Shown here piece by piece: positions 5,024 through 56,124 of a stretch of 56,124 nucleotides of DNA. The translations under genes and the position numbers were made by a program. The notes below the pieces were generated by a model. The model was given only the letters and a program-made list of their open reading frames with translations. It made no database searches and was not told the DNA's origin. Position 1 is the first letter of the stretch. Each line of letters begins with the position of its first letter. Origin of the DNA: a virus (lineage: Duplodnaviria > Caudoviricetes); the IMG/VR virus record IMGVR_UViG_3300047478_000286, positions 1 to 56,124 of that record. The stretch is one strand, 5' to 3'.

Positions 5024-5347
5024 ATGAACAAACCAACATTAAAATTAAACAATGAGCCAAAACTACCACACGAAGTTGAGCGTGAAAAGCAAGCCCAACA
5101 CGCGAAAGTGTTTGAGCGTAAAGTTAAGCAGCCTCAGACAATCACGGGTCACGAAGTTGCGTTAGCGAAAATGGTCAAAGAACGCAGAAGAATCAAGGTG
5201 ACATTTGTGAACTGTGAGTCAGTCGAAGGCGAGCTTTTAGAATTCGACAAATTCTCAATCAGAGTTGCTCTTGATTCTGGCATCTGTGAGTGGTTCTTTA
5301 AAAGCAACTTGAAGTCATTCTCAGAGGTAGGAAAGAATGTCAGATAA
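5024..5347 (+). CDS. Hfq/LSm-fold protein
   Basis: IKVTFVNCESVEGELLEFDKFSIRV resembles Hfq Sm1; WFFKSNL resembles Sm2 MVYKHAI. Confidence 0.65.
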   Translation: MNKPTLKLNNEPKLPHEVEREKQAQHAKVFERKVKQPQTITGHEVALAKMVKERRRIKVTFVNCESVEGELLEFDKFSIRVALDSGICEWFFKSNLKSFSEVGKNVR

Positions 5348-11118: not shown

Positions 11119-11211
11119 AAAGAAAAAGCAAAGTCAGAAAGCAGCAAAGGCAGCAAAAGCTCCGAAAAAAGCAAAAGCAAATCAGAAACCAAAGAAGAGC
11201 AGGAAAATGAT

Positions 11212-11280
11212 GAAGAGCCTGAAGAGCCTGAAGAGCCTGAAGAGCCTGAAGAGCCTGAAGAGCCTGAAGAGCCTGAAGAG
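11212..11280 (+). repeat. 9-bp tandem repeat (GAAGAGCCT)x7+, EEP in the cobT frame
   Basis: Seven perfect units plus GAAGAG. Confidence 0.95.
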
Positions 11281-11348
11281 AGTGACAATAGCGGCCCGGA
11301 AGAAGACGAAAGTGGAGAAAGCGAGGGCGATAATACCGATGATTCCGA

Positions 11349-11419
11349 TTCTGATGACGACAGTGACGATGACGAAGGTTCTGATGACGACAGTGACGAT
11401 GACGAAGGTTCTGATGACG
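11349..11419 (+). repeat. 30-bp tandem repeat in acidic linker
   Basis: TTCTGATGACGACAGTGACGATGACGAAGG x2 plus a partial unit. Confidence 0.9.
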
Positions 11420-11517
11420 GCGATTCTGATAACGACAGTGACGATGAAGAAAGCGGTGAAAAGAGCGAGAGCGAAGAGGGCTCGTTTGATATAGACAAGA
11501 TTGACAAAGGTGATTTT

Positions 11518-29251: not shown

Positions 29252-30178
29252 ATGACAAAGGCTGTTAAATATAATATAGAGATAGACTACTCGCGGGATA
29301 ATTTATTTGACGAACTTGGCTTGGTTAGGCTCAGAGAGTCATACATGATTCCGGAAGAGCAGTCACCACAAGAAAGGTATGCCTACGTTAGCGCGTTTTT
29401 TGCGTCAAGCCAAGCTCATGCTCAGAGGCTGTATAATTACGCTTCCAAACATTGGCTGTCGTATTCGACTCCAATATTGGCACATCATGAGAGTAAAAAA
29501 GGATTAGGGATAAGCTGTTATGTAAATTATCTTGAGGATAGCTCTCAAGGTTTGGTTGATAATCTGAGTTTGTCGAATTGGCTCTCAATGTATGGCGGTG
29601 GTGTTGGGGTGAATATAGGCATTCGTGGTGCTGATGGGAAATCTGTTGGTGTAATGCCACACATGAAGACTTATGATTCATGCTCTATGGCGTATAAACA
29701 AGGCTCAAGGCGAGGAAGTTACGCAGCTTACTTGGACATAAACCACCCGGATATTGTGCAATTCATCGAAATGAGAAAGCCCACTGGCGACCCTAACATG
29801 AGAACGCCGAACTTAAATCATGGTATAAATGTTTCCGATGAATTTATGGAGATTATCAAACGCTGCATGGAAGACCCAAACGCAAGTGACGATTGGAATT
29901 TGGTGCAGCCGCATAACGGCAAAATAACAGAAGTAGTTTCGGCAAAAGAATTGTGGCAAAAAATACTAGAAACAAGAATGCAGACAGGCGAGCCATACTT
30001 GTATTTCATTGATACCGTGAATAGAGCATTACCACAGTATCAAAAAGATGCGGGTTTGCGTGTTAATGGCAGCAATCTGTGTATTGAGCTTTGTGAAGCA
30101 ACGAGCGCAGAAAGAACGGCGGTTTGTTGCCTGTCTTCTGTGAATCTTGAATATTGGGAAGCGTGGAAAGATGCCTGA
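29252..30178 (+). CDS. nrdA: Class I ribonucleotide reductase alpha, N-terminal part
   Basis: STPIL, ISCY, GGGVG, RRGSYAAYL..HPD, GEPY, SNLCIE, AVCCLSS; no ATP cone. Confidence 0.88.
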   Translation: MTKAVKYNIEIDYSRDNLFDELGLVRLRESYMIPEEQSPQERYAYVSAFFASSQAHAQRLYNYASKHWLSYSTPILAHHESKKGLGISCYVNYLEDSSQGLVDNLSLSNWLSMYGGGVGVNIGIRGADGKSVGVMPHMKTYDSCSMAYKQGSRRGSYAAYLDINHPDIVQFIEMRKPTGDPNMRTPNLNHGINVSDEFMEIIKRCMEDPNASDDWNLVQPHNGKITEVVSAKELWQKILETRMQTGEPYLYFIDTVNRALPQYQKDAGLRVNGSNLCIELCEATSAERTAVCCLSSVNLEYWEAWKDA

Positions 30179-31043
30179 CGTTTTGGAAATGCTAGACAAT
30201 GTATTGGAATTTTTTATCACCAACGCCCCAGACACTATAGCAACCGCAAAGTATTCCGCATATAGGGAAAGGTCTGTTGGAATTGGGGCGTTGGGGTTTC
30301 ATGCTTTGTTGCAACAAAAAAGCATACCATTCGAAAGTGCTTTAGCCAAAAGCATTAATATGAAAATTTTCAAACACATACAGGCAAGCTTAGATGCTGC
30401 GAACCTTGCGTTAGCTGAAATTCGCGGTAGCTGCCCGGACGCGGAAGATTATGGCGTTAAAAAACGAAACACCCACACAATGGCAATAGCACCAAATGCG
30501 TCAACCTCAATTGTTATGGGGAACACAAGCCCAAGCATTGAGCCATTCGCAGCAAACTTTTATCGCCAAGATACAACTTCCGGAACTCACTTCAACAAAA
30601 ACAAATACCTAGAAGCGATAATTCTTGATAGGTCAAAGGATGAAAAAGAAGGGTTTTATGAAGAGATATGGTCTTCAATCGTCGCACATGAAGGTTCGGT
30701 GCAGCATATCGAATGGCTAGATGATTGGCAAAAAGATGTTTTCAAAACCGCAATGGAGATAGACCAGCGTTGGATTATTGACTTGGCGGCAGACAGGCAG
30801 CAGTTTGTAGACCAGTCTCAAAGTTTGAACATTTTCTTTGAGCCCGATTCAAGCGTTCAATATATACATGCGGTTCACTTTATGGCATGGGCGCGTGGGG
30901 TGAAGTCGCTGTATTATTGCCGCAGCAAGAAGTTGAGAAAAGGAACTGACAAGGTTGGTTTGAAAGTTAAAAGAATGAAAATCGAAGATGAAATTAACAT
31001 GGCAGAAATCGCACAAGGCGGTGGATGTTTGGCTTGCGAATAG
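30171..31043 (+). CDS. nrdA: Class I ribonucleotide reductase alpha, C-terminal part (different frame)
   Basis: RSVGIG, AIAPNASTS, DQSQS.N, KSLYY, terminal CLACE; ATG overlaps upstream TGA. Confidence 0.85.
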   Translation: MPDVLEMLDNVLEFFITNAPDTIATAKYSAYRERSVGIGALGFHALLQQKSIPFESALAKSINMKIFKHIQASLDAANLALAEIRGSCPDAEDYGVKKRNTHTMAIAPNASTSIVMGNTSPSIEPFAANFYRQDTTSGTHFNKNKYLEAIILDRSKDEKEGFYEEIWSSIVAHEGSVQHIEWLDDWQKDVFKTAMEIDQRWIIDLAADRQQFVDQSQSLNIFFEPDSSVQYIHAVHFMAWARGVKSLYYCRSKKLRKGTDKVGLKVKRMKIEDEINMAEIAQGGGCLACE

Positions 31044-41716: not shown

Positions 41717-41870
41717 AAAAATCGACGCTGTGAGCTGTTTTTAAATTATCTTTAATATGTATCAAGTTAATTAAAAAAACGCTTAAAACGCTTTAAATTC
41801 GATATTTTAAATAGAACCGTTATCTGCTTTGTATAATGTATCAACAGCAATAAAGCACATGGAAATAATC

Positions 41871-43619: not shown

Positions 43620-44966
43620 ATGATGAAATTTTTGAAAGTGTTTTTGGCAGCTTATGTTGCTGTCATGTCTTTTGGTGCACATGCACACGGGACAAATAAC
43701 ATTAATTACCGCGAGTTTGACCATCGTTGCGTAAACACAGCATTGGGTGTAAATCGTAAAATGCTTTACTTCGGTGAGACTTGTGCTCCAGGTGAAACAG
43801 CTACGCACGTCCAATATGACCGGATGTTACCAACTGCGCCACCGCCTCCTCCACCACCTACACCACCAGCCCAAGTATTGCCGTTAACTTATTGCGCACA
43901 ACCGGCATACAACAAAGCGATTGTTCACGTTACAACCGCTGGTGCGATTCCTAACGACAACCTGAGTGATTCAGCAGCTATCCAGTCTGTTATTGACTCA
44001 ACTTCTGCAAACCTAACCACAGCGTTTATTCCGGCTGGAACGTGGAACATTGAACCAAACGTTGTAAAGTTAAAAACCAACACAACTTTAGTTCTTGACC
44101 CATTAGCAGTTATCAAAATGGCTCCTACTAGCGCAGGCAGCTACTCAGTGCTTGATGTTACTGGTGTTAATAACGTAAACGTTTCTGGTGGAACTATCGT
44201 GGGTGACCGTTTAGCTCACACTGGCACTACTGGCGAATGGGGTATGGGTTTCTATATCCGCAACAGCTCACAAATCAACATCGAAAACGTTGCGGTTAAA
44301 GACGCTTGGGGCGATGGTATCTATGTAGGTAACGTCTCTGCTAACGTTAAACTTTGTAAAGTTGTTGTAGATAACGCACGCCGTAATGGTTTGTCTATCA
44401 CCTCTGCTAACAACGTTTTTATTGACCAATCAATCTTCAAAAACACACACGGCACTTTGCCTCAGTCTGGTATTGGTTTAGAGCCTAATGTTAATGAAAC
44501 TGTTAGCAACGTAACCATCAAAAGCACAGAAATGCACGGCAACTACGCCTCTGGTTTCTACGCTGGTTGGGTTCAGTCTGCTACTGGTGCAAGCATCACT
44601 GGCGTTATTTTAGATGGCAACAACATCCATGACAATGGCTTAGATTTATCTACTTCATTTGCTTATGGCATTTTGTTAGACAAACAGGTTAACGCTGTTG
44701 TTAAAAACAACACAATCAAAGACAACAAAAATGCCGGTATCTATGTTGATAGCAACACCACTGGTTCACACATCTTTGGTAACACTTTAACAAACAATGG
44801 TGGTTTCGGTATTCCTTTGGATAACACCGTTTCCAACTCACTTATTGAAAACAACACCATTACAGGCCACGCAACTTGCGACATTATTAGCTGGTCGTCT
44901 GGGGCTGGTAACGTTTGGCGTGCAAACACTGTCGTTAAACCTTGCGGCACTGTTCAACAACCTTAA
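43620..44966 (+). CDS. Secreted right-handed beta-helix (pectin lyase-like) protein
   Basis: Signal peptide, poly-Pro linker, GAIPND..SDSAAIQ..ID, FIPAGTW, WGDGIY, NARRNGLSI, Asn-rich repeats. Confidence 0.85.
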   Translation: MMKFLKVFLAAYVAVMSFGAHAHGTNNINYREFDHRCVNTALGVNRKMLYFGETCAPGETATHVQYDRMLPTAPPPPPPPTPPAQVLPLTYCAQPAYNKAIVHVTTAGAIPNDNLSDSAAIQSVIDSTSANLTTAFIPAGTWNIEPNVVKLKTNTTLVLDPLAVIKMAPTSAGSYSVLDVTGVNNVNVSGGTIVGDRLAHTGTTGEWGMGFYIRNSSQINIENVAVKDAWGDGIYVGNVSANVKLCKVVVDNARRNGLSITSANNVFIDQSIFKNTHGTLPQSGIGLEPNVNETVSNVTIKSTEMHGNYASGFYAGWVQSATGASITGVILDGNNIHDNGLDLSTSFAYGILLDKQVNAVVKNNTIKDNKNAGIYVDSNTTGSHIFGNTLTNNGGFGIPLDNTVSNSLIENNTITGHATCDIISWSSGAGNVWRANTVVKPCGTVQQP

Positions 44967-44970
44967 TTCC

Positions 44971-45082
44971 TGAATAGATTCATTTAAGCAAAAGGCGTGT
45001 TAAGTGTTTGATTTGCTTAACACGCCAATGTTGATGAATAGATTCCTGAATAGATTCGTGAATAGGTTCACGAATAGCTTAA
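44971..45082. repeat. 12-bp repeats flanking an inverted repeat that carries an IHF-consensus site
   Basis: TGAATAGATTCN at 44971, 45035, 45047, 45059, 45071; GGCGTGTTAAG/CTTAACACGCC (44994-45026); TAAGTGTTTGATT. Confidence 0.75.
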
Positions 45083-45109: not shown

Positions 45110-46207
45110 ATGAAAAAAATTTTTACACTAATCGCGTTGGTTATGCTTTCAAACATGGCGCAAGCTGCGTTCGAAGCTGGCAACGTTCCATCACCAAAAA
45201 TCGCTGCACCAGCGGGCCCACGCTTCCCTGGTTCACGCATTAAACTTAACGCTGCTTTACCTGACTATGACTTTGCTGAAGGCAAGCAACGTTTAGGCTG
45301 CTTGTGGTCACTTGCACAGAAAGTAGACCCCATAGTTGAACCTAACGTATTCCCTAGTAACCATTTACATGATTTTTATGGCAACCCTACTATAAATCAA
45401 TTCAGCACTGCCGCTTCTTTAGCTTTACCTACTGCTGGCTCTAGCTGCTCAGGTGGTAATGAATATCAGTCGTCTTTTTGGTTCCCTTCAATAGTTGACA
45501 CTAATGATGTCGTAACGCCTGCTTCTGGCTCAACTCCTGCTAAATATCGTTACGTTGGAACTAGCGGCGCTTTGGTATACTACGCAAGTGCTGTAGGTTT
45601 AGAAGGTCGCAAAGTGCAGCCTATCCCATTTGGTTTGAAAATGGTTATCGGCAAAATGCACAACACTAACCCAGCTGAAAACCTGTCTGACTGGTCTTGC
45701 TCTAACGCAACAGGCACGCCCTTTACACGCGTTGGCGCTCAAAAGACTATTCCAACTTGCGTTTATGGCGAAAAGTTGCGTGAATTATTACGTTTTAACC
45801 AGTGTTTGAAGTTGAAGCCAAACGGTCAGCCTTACTTGGATACCGACGCTGTTAACTTCCCCGCTAACGACCACCGTAGTCATTTAGTGCCTACTAGAAC
45901 TGGCAATTGGCAAACTAACCCTGCACAAAACGAGTGTCCTAGTGGTCACATGCTGATTCCACAAGTAACTTTGATTCGTGACACTGTTGTTCCTGCTGGT
46001 AAAACAACAGCCGGTTATCGCTTAGTAACTGACAATAGCAACATGAGCAACCCAGGTGGAACCGCCCATGCCGACTATTTCATGGCGATGAAAGCCAAGT
46101 GGATGAACATGATCGTTGAGAACTGCATCAACGACCACAAGAACTGCGGCATCGGTCTGATGGGTATTGACCCTGCTGATGGTATCAGTAAAGCTCTGAT
46201 TCAATAA
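45110..46207 (+). CDS. Secreted DUF1996-like protein
   Basis: Signal peptide; DPIV.P...SNHLHDFYGN, SSC...SSFWFP, P.GLKMVIG, CPSGH..IPQ, HADY. Confidence 0.8.
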   Translation: MKKIFTLIALVMLSNMAQAAFEAGNVPSPKIAAPAGPRFPGSRIKLNAALPDYDFAEGKQRLGCLWSLAQKVDPIVEPNVFPSNHLHDFYGNPTINQFSTAASLALPTAGSSCSGGNEYQSSFWFPSIVDTNDVVTPASGSTPAKYRYVGTSGALVYYASAVGLEGRKVQPIPFGLKMVIGKMHNTNPAENLSDWSCSNATGTPFTRVGAQKTIPTCVYGEKLRELLRFNQCLKLKPNGQPYLDTDAVNFPANDHRSHLVPTRTGNWQTNPAQNECPSGHMLIPQVTLIRDTVVPAGKTTAGYRLVTDNSNMSNPGGTAHADYFMAMKAKWMNMIVENCINDHKNCGIGLMGIDPADGISKALIQ

Positions 46208-52452: not shown

Positions 52453-52636
52453 ACAGGTTTTGTTTTAGTATCCGGCAGCGTTTCCGTCCTGGTGTATACA
52501 GTTAACCTTTGAAATATATAAACCTTTTTGTTAAAACACCGCTTTAAACAGCCGCTTACATAGCCATTTTGAGCCGTGTAAGTAGCTTATAATAATCATT
52601 AAGCAATTAGTTATATATCTTTTTCGGAGCCACACA

Positions 52637-54689: not shown

Positions 54690-54932
54690 ATGTCAAAACA
54701 TCACAAAGAAATGTATACCGAAATGGAAGCCCTTGAAGAGCGTTGCGCAAAAGAACCCAACAAAGCCTCGCCTAAAAAACACACAAACAAGGCGCTTTTT
54801 ATAGTGCGGGAGCTTTTGATAGTGTTGTTGGCTTTACTGATTGTAGTCGCAATTTTCATTAAACCTGTGCTTTTGCTTCATTTTGTAGGTTGCTATATTA
54901 TTTTAAGCACTTTAAGCAACGAAAATAAGTAA
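54690..54932 (+). CDS. Small membrane protein
   Basis: C-terminal hydrophobic helices. Confidence 0.6.
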   Translation: MSKHHKEMYTEMEALEERCAKEPNKASPKKHTNKALFIVRELLIVLLALLIVVAIFIKPVLLLHFVGCYIILSTLSNENK

Positions 54933-54984
54933 GCGCACACATATTGCTAATAAACTTTAAAAACGTCACTACGAGCTTAAAAAC

Positions 54985-55686
54985 GCGCTTAAATTGCATG
55001 TTTTCAATTTATTCTAAGCGCTATTTACAAATTCCAGCAGAGACGGCTTAAATTTTAACCGTTTCTTGCCTATGTTTTGATTTAAGACTCAGCTAAAATG
55101 TTTGTTAAAATAAGTTTTTTTAAAAAACTATGTAACAATACTTTTGCTTTCTTGTTTTAAGAAAGCCGGTTCAGCATAACGGAGGGACGATACCGCTGGC
55201 GACTGAACTGGAAGTGCCACAAGTGAGACTCAAGGTGGCAACGTGGGCTTGATAATTTTGCTAGAGCGTGAGGGGTTTTAACCGTTTTCCGGTTAACGTA
55301 AGTCTGGCATTCCTCATTTTCAAAGCATGGCGGTTTTACCGTTACTGATTTTAGAAAATAGAGTTAAGGCGAATAGGTAAAAAAACAAGTAAGTTTTATT
55401 AAGAGTTTTCTCTTTTTTATTTGTTTTCCCTATGGGTCTTAACTTGTCCTATTTTCTAGCATGTCTTTTTTAAAAGCTATTTTTAAATTTATTTAATGTT
55501 TCGCAAGGCCCTTAATTGGGCTTTTTTGTTTCTTAAGCTCTAAAAAAATTGCGCCGCGCAAAGCTAAACTTTTTTAAACAAAACCTACATAGCAGATTCA
55601 AACAAACCCGGTTAATAGCTGTTGTCGTTTAGCTTGTGGAACAAATAAGCTTTTCTCAGGCTTACCCGTTGCAGCCAATGCTTGAG
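54985..55686 (+). ncRNA. Candidate large structured non-coding RNA (boundaries uncertain)
   Basis: No ORF of 60 aa or more; at least 10 adjacent helices, with wobbles reading as G-U on the + strand. Confidence 0.5.
55505..55527 (+). terminator. Terminator-like hairpin
   Basis: AAGGCCC/GGGCTTT plus T run. Confidence 0.6.
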
Positions 55687-55743
55687 TTAGCCATTGACTA
55701 TGTTATATTTTCTTAACTTTAATTAACAAATGCCGGAACTAAT

Positions 55744-56055
55744 ATGAAAACCCAACAAGACAACTACAACGCAAGCTGTATAAAAATATTAAAGCCAGAA
55801 GAAGCCCAACAAAAATTCGGCTGGTTAATGGCACAAGAGCTGGCACAAAAATATTCAAAACCTTTAGAGTTCATTGAGCGTGGCATTGAGGCTTGTCGAA
55901 GGTCTTCCACTGCCATTGAGTTTTTTATTGCGCGTTACTTGGAAAAACAAGAAACACCACTACCACGTAATGAATTGTTAGAAGTGGCTTATTTAGAAGT
56001 CATGGCGGAACACAGAGAAGCGTTCCAAAAGTCAGGCCCAAAACGCTTAAATTAA
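55744..56055 (+). CDS. Hypothetical protein
   Basis: 103 aa with GGAA RBS. Confidence 0.7.
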   Translation: MKTQQDNYNASCIKILKPEEAQQKFGWLMAQELAQKYSKPLEFIERGIEACRRSSTAIEFFIARYLEKQETPLPRNELLEVAYLEVMAEHREAFQKSGPKRLN

Positions 56056-56124
56056 AAAGCTGCAAATTTGCGTTCTAAGCGTCGAAAAAAACGAAGAGCT
56101 ACGATGAAACGACTTAGAAAGAGA

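Follow-up and report, generated by a model that had tools for sequence, protein, structure and literature searches.

The ORF-free gap analysed here spans positions 54933-55743 (811 nt, 35% GC) of the window, by which we mean the whole stretch of DNA under study, a linear IMG/VR virus record taken in full (56124 bp, estimated to be 51% complete). As a preliminary description of this DNA had claimed, it is the longest stretch of the window without a + strand ORF of at least 50 aa: there are 12 gaps of at least 120 nt, and the runner-up measures 272 nt. The frames of the gap are densely stopped, and none stays open for more than 68 codons. Two small + strand ORFs flank it, and their 80-aa and 103-aa products have one relative each, at 55-58% identity. 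The features discussed below are as follows (a dot marks features without an assigned strand).

5024-5347, +: predicted Hfq-fold protein, 107 aa, with an N-terminal helix extension (family profile and AlphaFold model)
54690-54932, +: upstream ORF, 80 aa, predicted membrane ORFan without a family match
54960-55080,.: segment with a second-context copy in run X2 (151-nt unitig, depth 2, 89% alike)
54986-55020,.: inverted-repeat element CGCTTAAATT...TTCTAAGCG, copy 1, with 7-bp arms GCGCTTA/TAAGCGC at 54985-91/55015-21
55037-55069, +: predicted hairpin (-11.6 kcal/mol), then a U-rich tail, CTATGTTTTGATTT
55082-55111, +: TG-extended promoter-like site TTAAGA-18-TAAAAT, with a predicted start near 55118
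55092-55147,.: AT-rich palindrome (55092-55145 has 16.7% GC) with the promoter-like site inside it
55146-55350, +: GC-rich cluster of five short hairpins, 47% GC, folding at background
55278-55296,.: perfect palindrome TTAACCG-N5-CGGTTAA; 4 of the 10 TTAACCG sites of the window lie in the gap
55352-55458,.: rod, a 107-nt imperfect inverted repeat with 41 pairs, 28% GC
55461-55504, +: A/U-rich spacer, 18% GC, between rod and terminator
55505-55533, +: predicted intrinsic terminator with a stem of 7 pairs (4 of them G-C), a loop of 6 nt, and the tail TTTGTTTCTT
55549-55561, -: short GC hairpin with A7/T7 flank, terminator-like
55682-55709, +: promoter-like site with TG, TTGAGT-16-TATATT, preceding the 103-aa ORF
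55744-56055, +: downstream ORF, 103 aa, PHROG 18265, function not known
56044-56081,.: second copy of the inverted-repeat element CGCTTAAATT...TTCTAAGCG; it overlaps the 103-aa ORF at its stop codon

Genomic context

Near-identical DNA occurs in the freshwater metagenomes of four studies, and there are no RNA runs among the public runs listed with the stretch. Nearly all large ORFs lie on the + strand. By profile and family assignments, the region from 1 to 43 kb is a replication and nucleotide-metabolism module. Its replication genes encode a DnaB-like helicase and a primase, an NAD-dependent ligase, a DnaE-type polymerase, and a gp32-like protein; its exonuclease and recombination genes encode a 5'-3' exonuclease, a RecA-like protein, SbcCD-like proteins, and a DnaQ-like exonuclease; PhoH, CobS/CobT, ribonucleotide reductase, thymidylate synthase, and DHFR complete the set. 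Small ORFans make up most of the right arm. Identity between the DnaE polymerase and any GenBank phage does not exceed about 41%, and when the polymerase was used as a query in IMG/VR, the sole other contig of the same phage was a 7.8-kb, 100%-identical one. The phage is a new lytic freshwater lineage without a cultured relative.

Several details of the window stand apart from the gap. The large subunit of ribonucleotide reductase is split into overlapping ORFs at 29252-30178 (308 aa) and 30147-31043 (298 aa), one matching the N-terminal and the other the C-terminal part of the barrel domain; a frameshift, a true split, or a sequencing error could be the cause. Perfect tandem repeats (9 nt x 7.8 and 30 nt x 2.4) at 11211-11453 lie within an ORF and encode an acidic repeat region adjoining the CobT-like genes. 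At the right end, a further ORF starts at 56104 (ATG after GAAGAG), 21 nt before the window ends, and runs off it (56104-56124). We considered the 103-aa ORF as a Mu Ner-like gene and rejected this assignment; the homolog in Vibrio phage VBM1 lies among hypothetical genes, with no transposase nearby.

Composition and signals of the gap

A GC-rich core had been singled out in the gap, and it is real: 55166-55345 has 50% GC, a value within the highest 1.2% among all 180-nt windows (mean 40.3%, sd 4.6), with blocks of 17-28% GC on both sides. The + strand of the gap region is G+T-rich.

The inverted-repeat element, searched as CGCTTA..TAAGCG, has two matches in the window against 0.14 expected, located after two successive small ORFs; no further copy was found in the 56 kb. 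The hairpin at 55037-55069 is a possible weak terminator of the upstream operon. The promoter-like site at 55082-55111 scores 9/12, and the extended -10 motif is common in the window (49 sites against 40 expected); we regard this promoter call as weak. The sequence at 55505-55533 has the clear form of an intrinsic terminator. Together, the promoter-like site and the terminator bracket a unit of about 415 nt (55118-55533) that contains no + strand ORF of 30 aa or more. In other gaps of this phage, a terminator directly follows the stop codon and a TATAAT-type promoter comes next.

A reading of GCTTAAA as a MotA-box-like motif was dropped, as the motif is not enriched across the window (36 sites against 30 expected). 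Two other gaps contain short tandem motifs, AAAACGCTT x 2.4 at 41776-41797 and AAACAGCCGCTTT x 1.9 at 52534-52557, that resemble ACGAGCTTAAAA x 1.9 at 54971-54993. The three may represent a shared protein-binding or promoter-proximal motif.

Folding compared with shuffled sequence

Folding energies were expressed as z-scores against dinucleotide shuffles of each strand, with 200 shuffles for sub-regions. As background, 177 coding windows gave a mean z of -0.5 (sd 1.4), with 15% below -2. The whole 801 nt reached z -2.8 on the + strand and -4.1 on the - strand. The rod (55346-55464) folds far better than chance, at z -5.34 (+) and -5.25 (-), and none of the 200 shuffles was as good on either strand. 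Its energies are -34.0 kcal/mol on the + strand and -24.9 on the - strand, with internal loops and bulges. The left part (54960-55150) is also above chance, at -2.63 (+) and -1.96 (-). In contrast, the GC-rich cluster (55146-55350) has z -0.69 on the + strand, a level that 48 of 200 shuffles match, and -1.67 on the - strand, matched by 11 of 200; 55536-55705 is at background level (+0.84/-0.89). The promoter-to-terminator unit (55118-55533, 416 nt) has z -4.0, because the rod drives its signal.

The preliminary description had seen the gap as tiled with helices over 550-700 nt. The helices are all present in the sequence, although ATAGG/CCTAT was placed one base off and lies at 55372-76/55429-33. 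Such a tiling is not supported: a z-score at background had been named there as a refuting result, and the GC core and the right third fold no better than background. It had also been argued that G-U pairs favour a + strand RNA. In minimum-energy folds of ten hairpins we do count 13 G-U pairs on the + strand against 6 on the - strand, but this difference arises because the + strand is G+T-rich, and composition-controlled z-scores do not favour the + strand.

What is in excess in the gap is perfect Watson-Crick pairing. Stems of at least 7 bp with loops of at most 40 nt number 11, against 5.0 +/- 2.3 in shuffles (11 was reached in 7 of 200) and 2.3 +/- 1.7 in other 811-nt windows (0 of 135 reached it). 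When G-U pairs are allowed, there is no excess (40 against 36.4). By raw energy, none of the 12 best local structures of the whole window falls in the gap on either strand, and no signature of tertiary motifs is evident in the hairpins, whose loops are U-rich. The significant structure thus consists of strand-symmetric inverted repeats, with the rod as the strongest, and is not an RNA-specific tiling of helices. A candidate sRNA on the - strand at 55536-55705 was also rejected: one 200-nt window had z -2.9, but the value was -0.89 with 200 shuffles.

Searches for known families and homologs

The claim that the gap belongs to no known RNA family held up. Both strands of all 56124 nt were searched with the covariance models of Rfam 15, including GOLLD, ROOL, OLE, tmRNA, RNase P, introns, and riboswitches, and 0 of 4227 families matched at the gathering score. 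With permissive filters, 12 matches appeared at E values up to 10; the best scored 18.8 bits against cut-offs of 44-117, which is noise. ARAGORN found no tRNA or tmRNA genes at default settings, and a "tRNA-Lys" called at 55254-55340 with an 80% threshold was discarded, its acceptor and D stems being mismatched.

Comparison with other genomes gave no homolog of the gap. A blastn search against phages and plasmids had no match, and neither did three exact probes from the gap in IMG/VR, where the flank proteins also had no relatives. A search of IMG/VR with the inverted-repeat pattern returned four chance matches in unrelated, otherwise dissimilar contigs. Relatives of the 103-aa ORF were found at 20 metagenome loci (JGI), and neither blastn nor nhmmer showed a resemblance of any of these loci to the gap. 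Among PHROGs, nothing matched the four longest stop-free frames of the gap at E values up to 1.

The rod has no second copy in the window. The pattern of its termini occurs at 120 or more GTDB loci and at 2 IMG/VR loci; none of the 141 instances among the matches listed is like the rod inside, the best internal score being 14/87. The gap thus does not behave as a MITE or repeated palindrome, given no second copy in the window and no internal likeness among the matches listed. Nor did a search for a retron msr-msd find a reverse transcriptase among the scanned ORFs, nine larger ORFs having been scanned in part or not at all; the next gene downstream of the gap (in sequence to 56124) is the PHROG 18265 ORF and not a reverse transcriptase.

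Strain variation around the gap

Strains were compared solely from contigs, leaving out 18-27-nt matches to unrelated high-depth contigs (X5 record 15, X6 record 19). In runs X5 and X6, divergence from the window amounts to 2-7% in five pieces that extend no further right than 54979, with 35 differences in 961 nt (9/124, 5/216, 10/189, 6/182, and 5/250). By contrast, 0 differences were counted over the 525 nt of the pieces at 55233-55439 and 55531-55848, and the identical stretch takes in 105 nt of the next ORF. As these pieces are diverged on the left and identical on the right, the boundary between the two states lies within 54979-55233. Selection on an RNA explains the identity on the right no better than a recent exchange of the module does. 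Contig depth in runs X2 and X3 rises about 1.3-1.4-fold from the left to the right side of ~55141-55293 (window 55141-56124), which fits a second strain that shares the right-hand module.

The X2 unitig carries its copy of 54960-55080 with 13 differences, directly preceded by 13 bases of 56111-56123. Because this one unitig joins both, a co-occurring variant would have the segment in a second context. For the main strain, the unitig extending beyond the window's end has no second match to the gap. Contigs that reach past this end include X3 record 12 (2807 nt) and X2 record 8 (609 nt).

Homologs of the 103-aa ORF in two metagenome loci, L007 and L003, each lie between two direct repeats of about 50 nt, spaced 441-442 nt apart. 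On L007, a 640-kb metagenome contig (9338-9455, 9881-10372), the repeats are 51 nt long and 441 nt apart, and the homolog adjoins at least six GTGGTTCCCCTA iterons and a 406-aa ORF. The L003 repeats are 49 nt long with 90% identity.

The Hfq-fold protein

The preliminary description had proposed that an Hfq-like protein of this phage could be a partner of the RNA, and for the ORF at 5024-5347 the Sm fold of Hfq is borne out. As a single sequence, the protein scores 18.9 bits against Pfam Hfq, below the cut-off of 27. It has 26 relatives at E values up to 0.001 among 1.84 billion representatives, and Pfam Hfq recognises 18 of the resulting 27 family members, with a best E of 2.2e-09; the family profile matches solved Hfq chains with a best E of 4.9e-07. 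The AlphaFold model has a pLDDT of 85, and Foldseek matches it to Hfq structures with target-normalised TM scores of 0.8-0.94. The assignment of an Hfq fold thus holds, and RNA binding and ring formation are putative. There is no family for this protein in PHROGs, and literature searches under the exact phrases used returned no phage-encoded Hfq.

The hfq-like gene lies about 50 kb from the gap, and its stop overlaps the DnaB-like helicase ORF at the first ATG of the latter (5337). Because of this overlap and distance, a role in replication is at least as likely as partnership with an RNA.

Discussion

Our tentative reading, with a probability of roughly 0.4, is that the gap, which lies in the ORFan-rich arm, is a composite of control and boundary elements without ORFs and not one large folded RNA. 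It is probably transcribed on the + strand. The sequence features, their statistics, and the strain mosaic are observed directly; transcription, processing, and recombination are all deduced here from the sequence. The inverted-repeat element and the U-tailed hairpin (54960-55080) would close the upstream operon, just as the related inverted repeat would close the next gene. The promoter-like site in the AT-rich palindrome (55082-55147) would then open the ORF-less unit of about 415 nt, in which a GC-rich stretch is followed by the 41-bp A/U-rich hairpin, the A/U-rich spacer, and the terminator at 55505-55533. Transcription of the + strand could start from this promoter or represent the tail of the upstream operon. 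The hairpins of the gap would act in cis: the rod, as double-stranded RNA akin to RNase III substrates, may serve in processing or stability, and the terminator would insulate the next module, for which the second promoter-like site (55682-55709) would restart transcription at the 103-aa ORF. The repeated inverted-repeat elements could act as linkers for the exchange of modules between strains.

Several observations count in favour of this control and boundary region. The large ORFs share the + orientation, and other gaps show a terminator and then a promoter. A + strand promoter-like site and a terminator enclose 55118-55533, which lacks + strand ORFs of 30 aa or more and has a rod-driven z of -4.0. 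The excess of perfect Watson-Crick repeats comes without an excess of G-U pairs, and the GC cluster folds at background. The doubled inverted-repeat element, the repeats that bracket the ORF homolog in L007 and L003, the X5/X6 mosaic, and the X2 unitig all point the same way. Other observations count against it. Punctuation needs less room, as the other gaps of at most 272 nt show, and this one is about three times longer. The 50% GC island and the local excess of TTAACCG are given no role, the inverted repeat has two copies in 56 kb and forms no dense PeSL-like family, the promoter call is weak, and the second context is one unitig of depth 2. The identity on the right could also reflect selection on an RNA.

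A second reading, which we find conceivable but somewhat unlikely, is an ORF-less gene for a trans-acting ncRNA of about 0.4 kb (55118-55533, + strand) that would work in the manner of an sRNA. The 5' part of such an RNA would be GC-rich; a long hairpin would come next, and the 3' module would consist of an A/U stretch, the terminator hairpin, and the U tail. In enterobacterial sRNAs, the Hfq-binding module is an A/U-rich stretch next to a U-tailed terminator. The spacer and terminator of the gap resemble such a module, and this 3' part could by analogy be bound by the Hfq-fold protein of the phage, which is a genuine one by fold, or by host Hfq. An ORF-less unit running from promoter to terminator also has the shape of a moron; it includes a GC island within AT-rich intergenic DNA, its z-score is -4.0, and a compact phage keeps some 500 nt here beyond the need of its other gaps. 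Yet the GC part folds at background, the + strand is not preferred once composition is controlled, and no homologs were found, hence no covariation. The gene for the Hfq-like protein overlaps the helicase gene 50 kb away, and the strain pieces at 55233-55439 and 55531-55848, whose 0 differences in 525 nt would suit a conserved RNA, extend over 105 nt of the next ORF, in keeping with recent exchange. That an orphan structured RNA of about 0.4 kb and the phage's own Hfq-fold protein form a riboregulator and chaperone pair without a database counterpart strikes us as improbable.

A replication origin or other DNA-level site is likewise an unlikely explanation, and it could take two forms. One is an R-loop origin of the T4 type, with a promoter running into an easily melted AT-rich element; the other is a hairpin or cruciform that loads replication proteins, with the TTAACCG palindromes as protein-binding sites. 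The gap is the longest non-coding stretch, and its structure is strand-symmetric and enriched in perfect Watson-Crick pairing. It has AT-rich blocks of 17-18% GC at 55092-55145 and 55461-55504, a promoter-like site within the AT palindrome, and 4 of the 10 TTAACCG sites, one pair of which forms the perfect 7-5-7 palindrome. The phage encodes T4-like replication and recombination proteins (gp32-like, RecA/UvsX-like, SbcCD-like, helicase, and primase), and a relative of the 103-aa ORF adjoins the iteron array in L007. Against this, the gap has no iterons, its sole tandem repeat being 12 nt x 1.9, and contains none of the 14 DnaA-box near-matches of the window. It therefore does not look like an iteron or DnaA-type origin, though AT-rich blocks are present. 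The clearest iteron-like array lies elsewhere, at 45034-45077, GC skew is confounded by the co-oriented genes, and about half of the genome is present. That array (ATGAATAGATTC x 3.7, with a 12-nt period) lies in the gap that separates a beta-helix protein (43620-44966) from the DUF1996 ORF downstream (45110-46207), in a stretch with a negative GC skew, unlike the rest of the window.

We consider it very unlikely that the gap is a decayed gene or the remnant of an inserted element, such as a MITE-like palindrome, with no present function. The GC island is coding-like in composition, and the arms of the rod look like a diverged inverted duplication flanked by TA; but the four longest stop-free frames lack a PHROG match at E values up to 1 and the frames are densely stopped, no rod-like interior was seen among the termini-pattern matches listed, the window holds no second copy, and the region is identical between strains. 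A large RNA of the GOLLD/ROOL class with a complex fold over 550-700 nt is hardly credible: a long ORF-free gap with many short helices in a phage would suit it, but 0 of 4227 Rfam families matched, with sub-threshold scores of 18-19 bits at best against cut-offs of 44-117, folding is at background in two of the three parts, neither strand is preferred, and the U-rich loops carry no recognisable tertiary motifs.

The observation of a large ncRNA in the preliminary description is thus partly confirmed and its interpretation partly supported. The non-coding nature of the region, the GC-rich island, the presence of real hairpins, and a predicted + strand terminator all stand; the helix-tiled RNA of 550-700 nt and the G-U argument do not. 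From a biological perspective, should the ORF-less unit yield a functional RNA, the phage would possess an orphan riboregulator, in a lineage without a cultured relative that also encodes an Hfq fold. The case also calls for caution, as a long gap with many hand-drawn helices can fold no better than shuffles, and a seeming strand bias in G-U pairs can stem from base composition alone.

Comparison with known systems

Large RNAs of the GOLLD/ROOL class occur in phages (PMC12286853). The gap shares with them a long ORF-free stretch in a lake-water phage, and differs in that it has no covariance-model match and folds for the most part at background. Compared with a moron or a terminator-ended sRNA, for instance an Hfq-dependent one, the likeness lies in a promoter-like site, the lack of an ORF, an A/U stretch, a U-tailed terminator, and the Hfq-fold gene of the phage; unlike them, the unit is long for an sRNA at about 415 nt, and the Hfq-like gene is linked to the helicase gene and not to the gap.

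The T4 origins oriF and oriG are R-loop origins in which a promoter is adjacent to an AT-rich, easily unwound element. Here too, a promoter-like site lies by an AT-rich element in a phage whose recombination and replication genes are T4-like, but no MotA-type middle promoter was recognised, and a terminator closes the unit.

T7 and lambda have RNase III processing hairpins between early genes. The rod is similarly a long, imperfect, intergenic hairpin of 41 pairs, in a co-directional early region and just upstream of a terminator. Its cleavage would be a prediction by analogy, and no sequence similarity to those hairpins is expected.

The control and boundary region that we favour recalls the PeSL (promoter-early stem-loops) of T4-type phages, repeated promoter-plus-stem-loop cassettes that flank ORFans and mediate their shuffling (PMC2839356). 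PeSL occur there in dozens of copies, in gaps of about 100 bp (PMC2839356). The 811-nt gap belongs to a window with two copies of its element, plus one deduced from a single unitig, and exchange at these sites is a prediction. The repeat here is also an inverted repeat with 7-bp arms and a 21-26-nt spacer that is not fused to a promoter consensus, in contrast to the cassettes as they are described there. What the two systems have in common are repeated intergenic stem-loop motifs by sigma-70-like promoters that flank small ORFans in a variable arm (PMC2839356), and the motifs of the gap coincide with the boundary between diverged and identical strain sequence.
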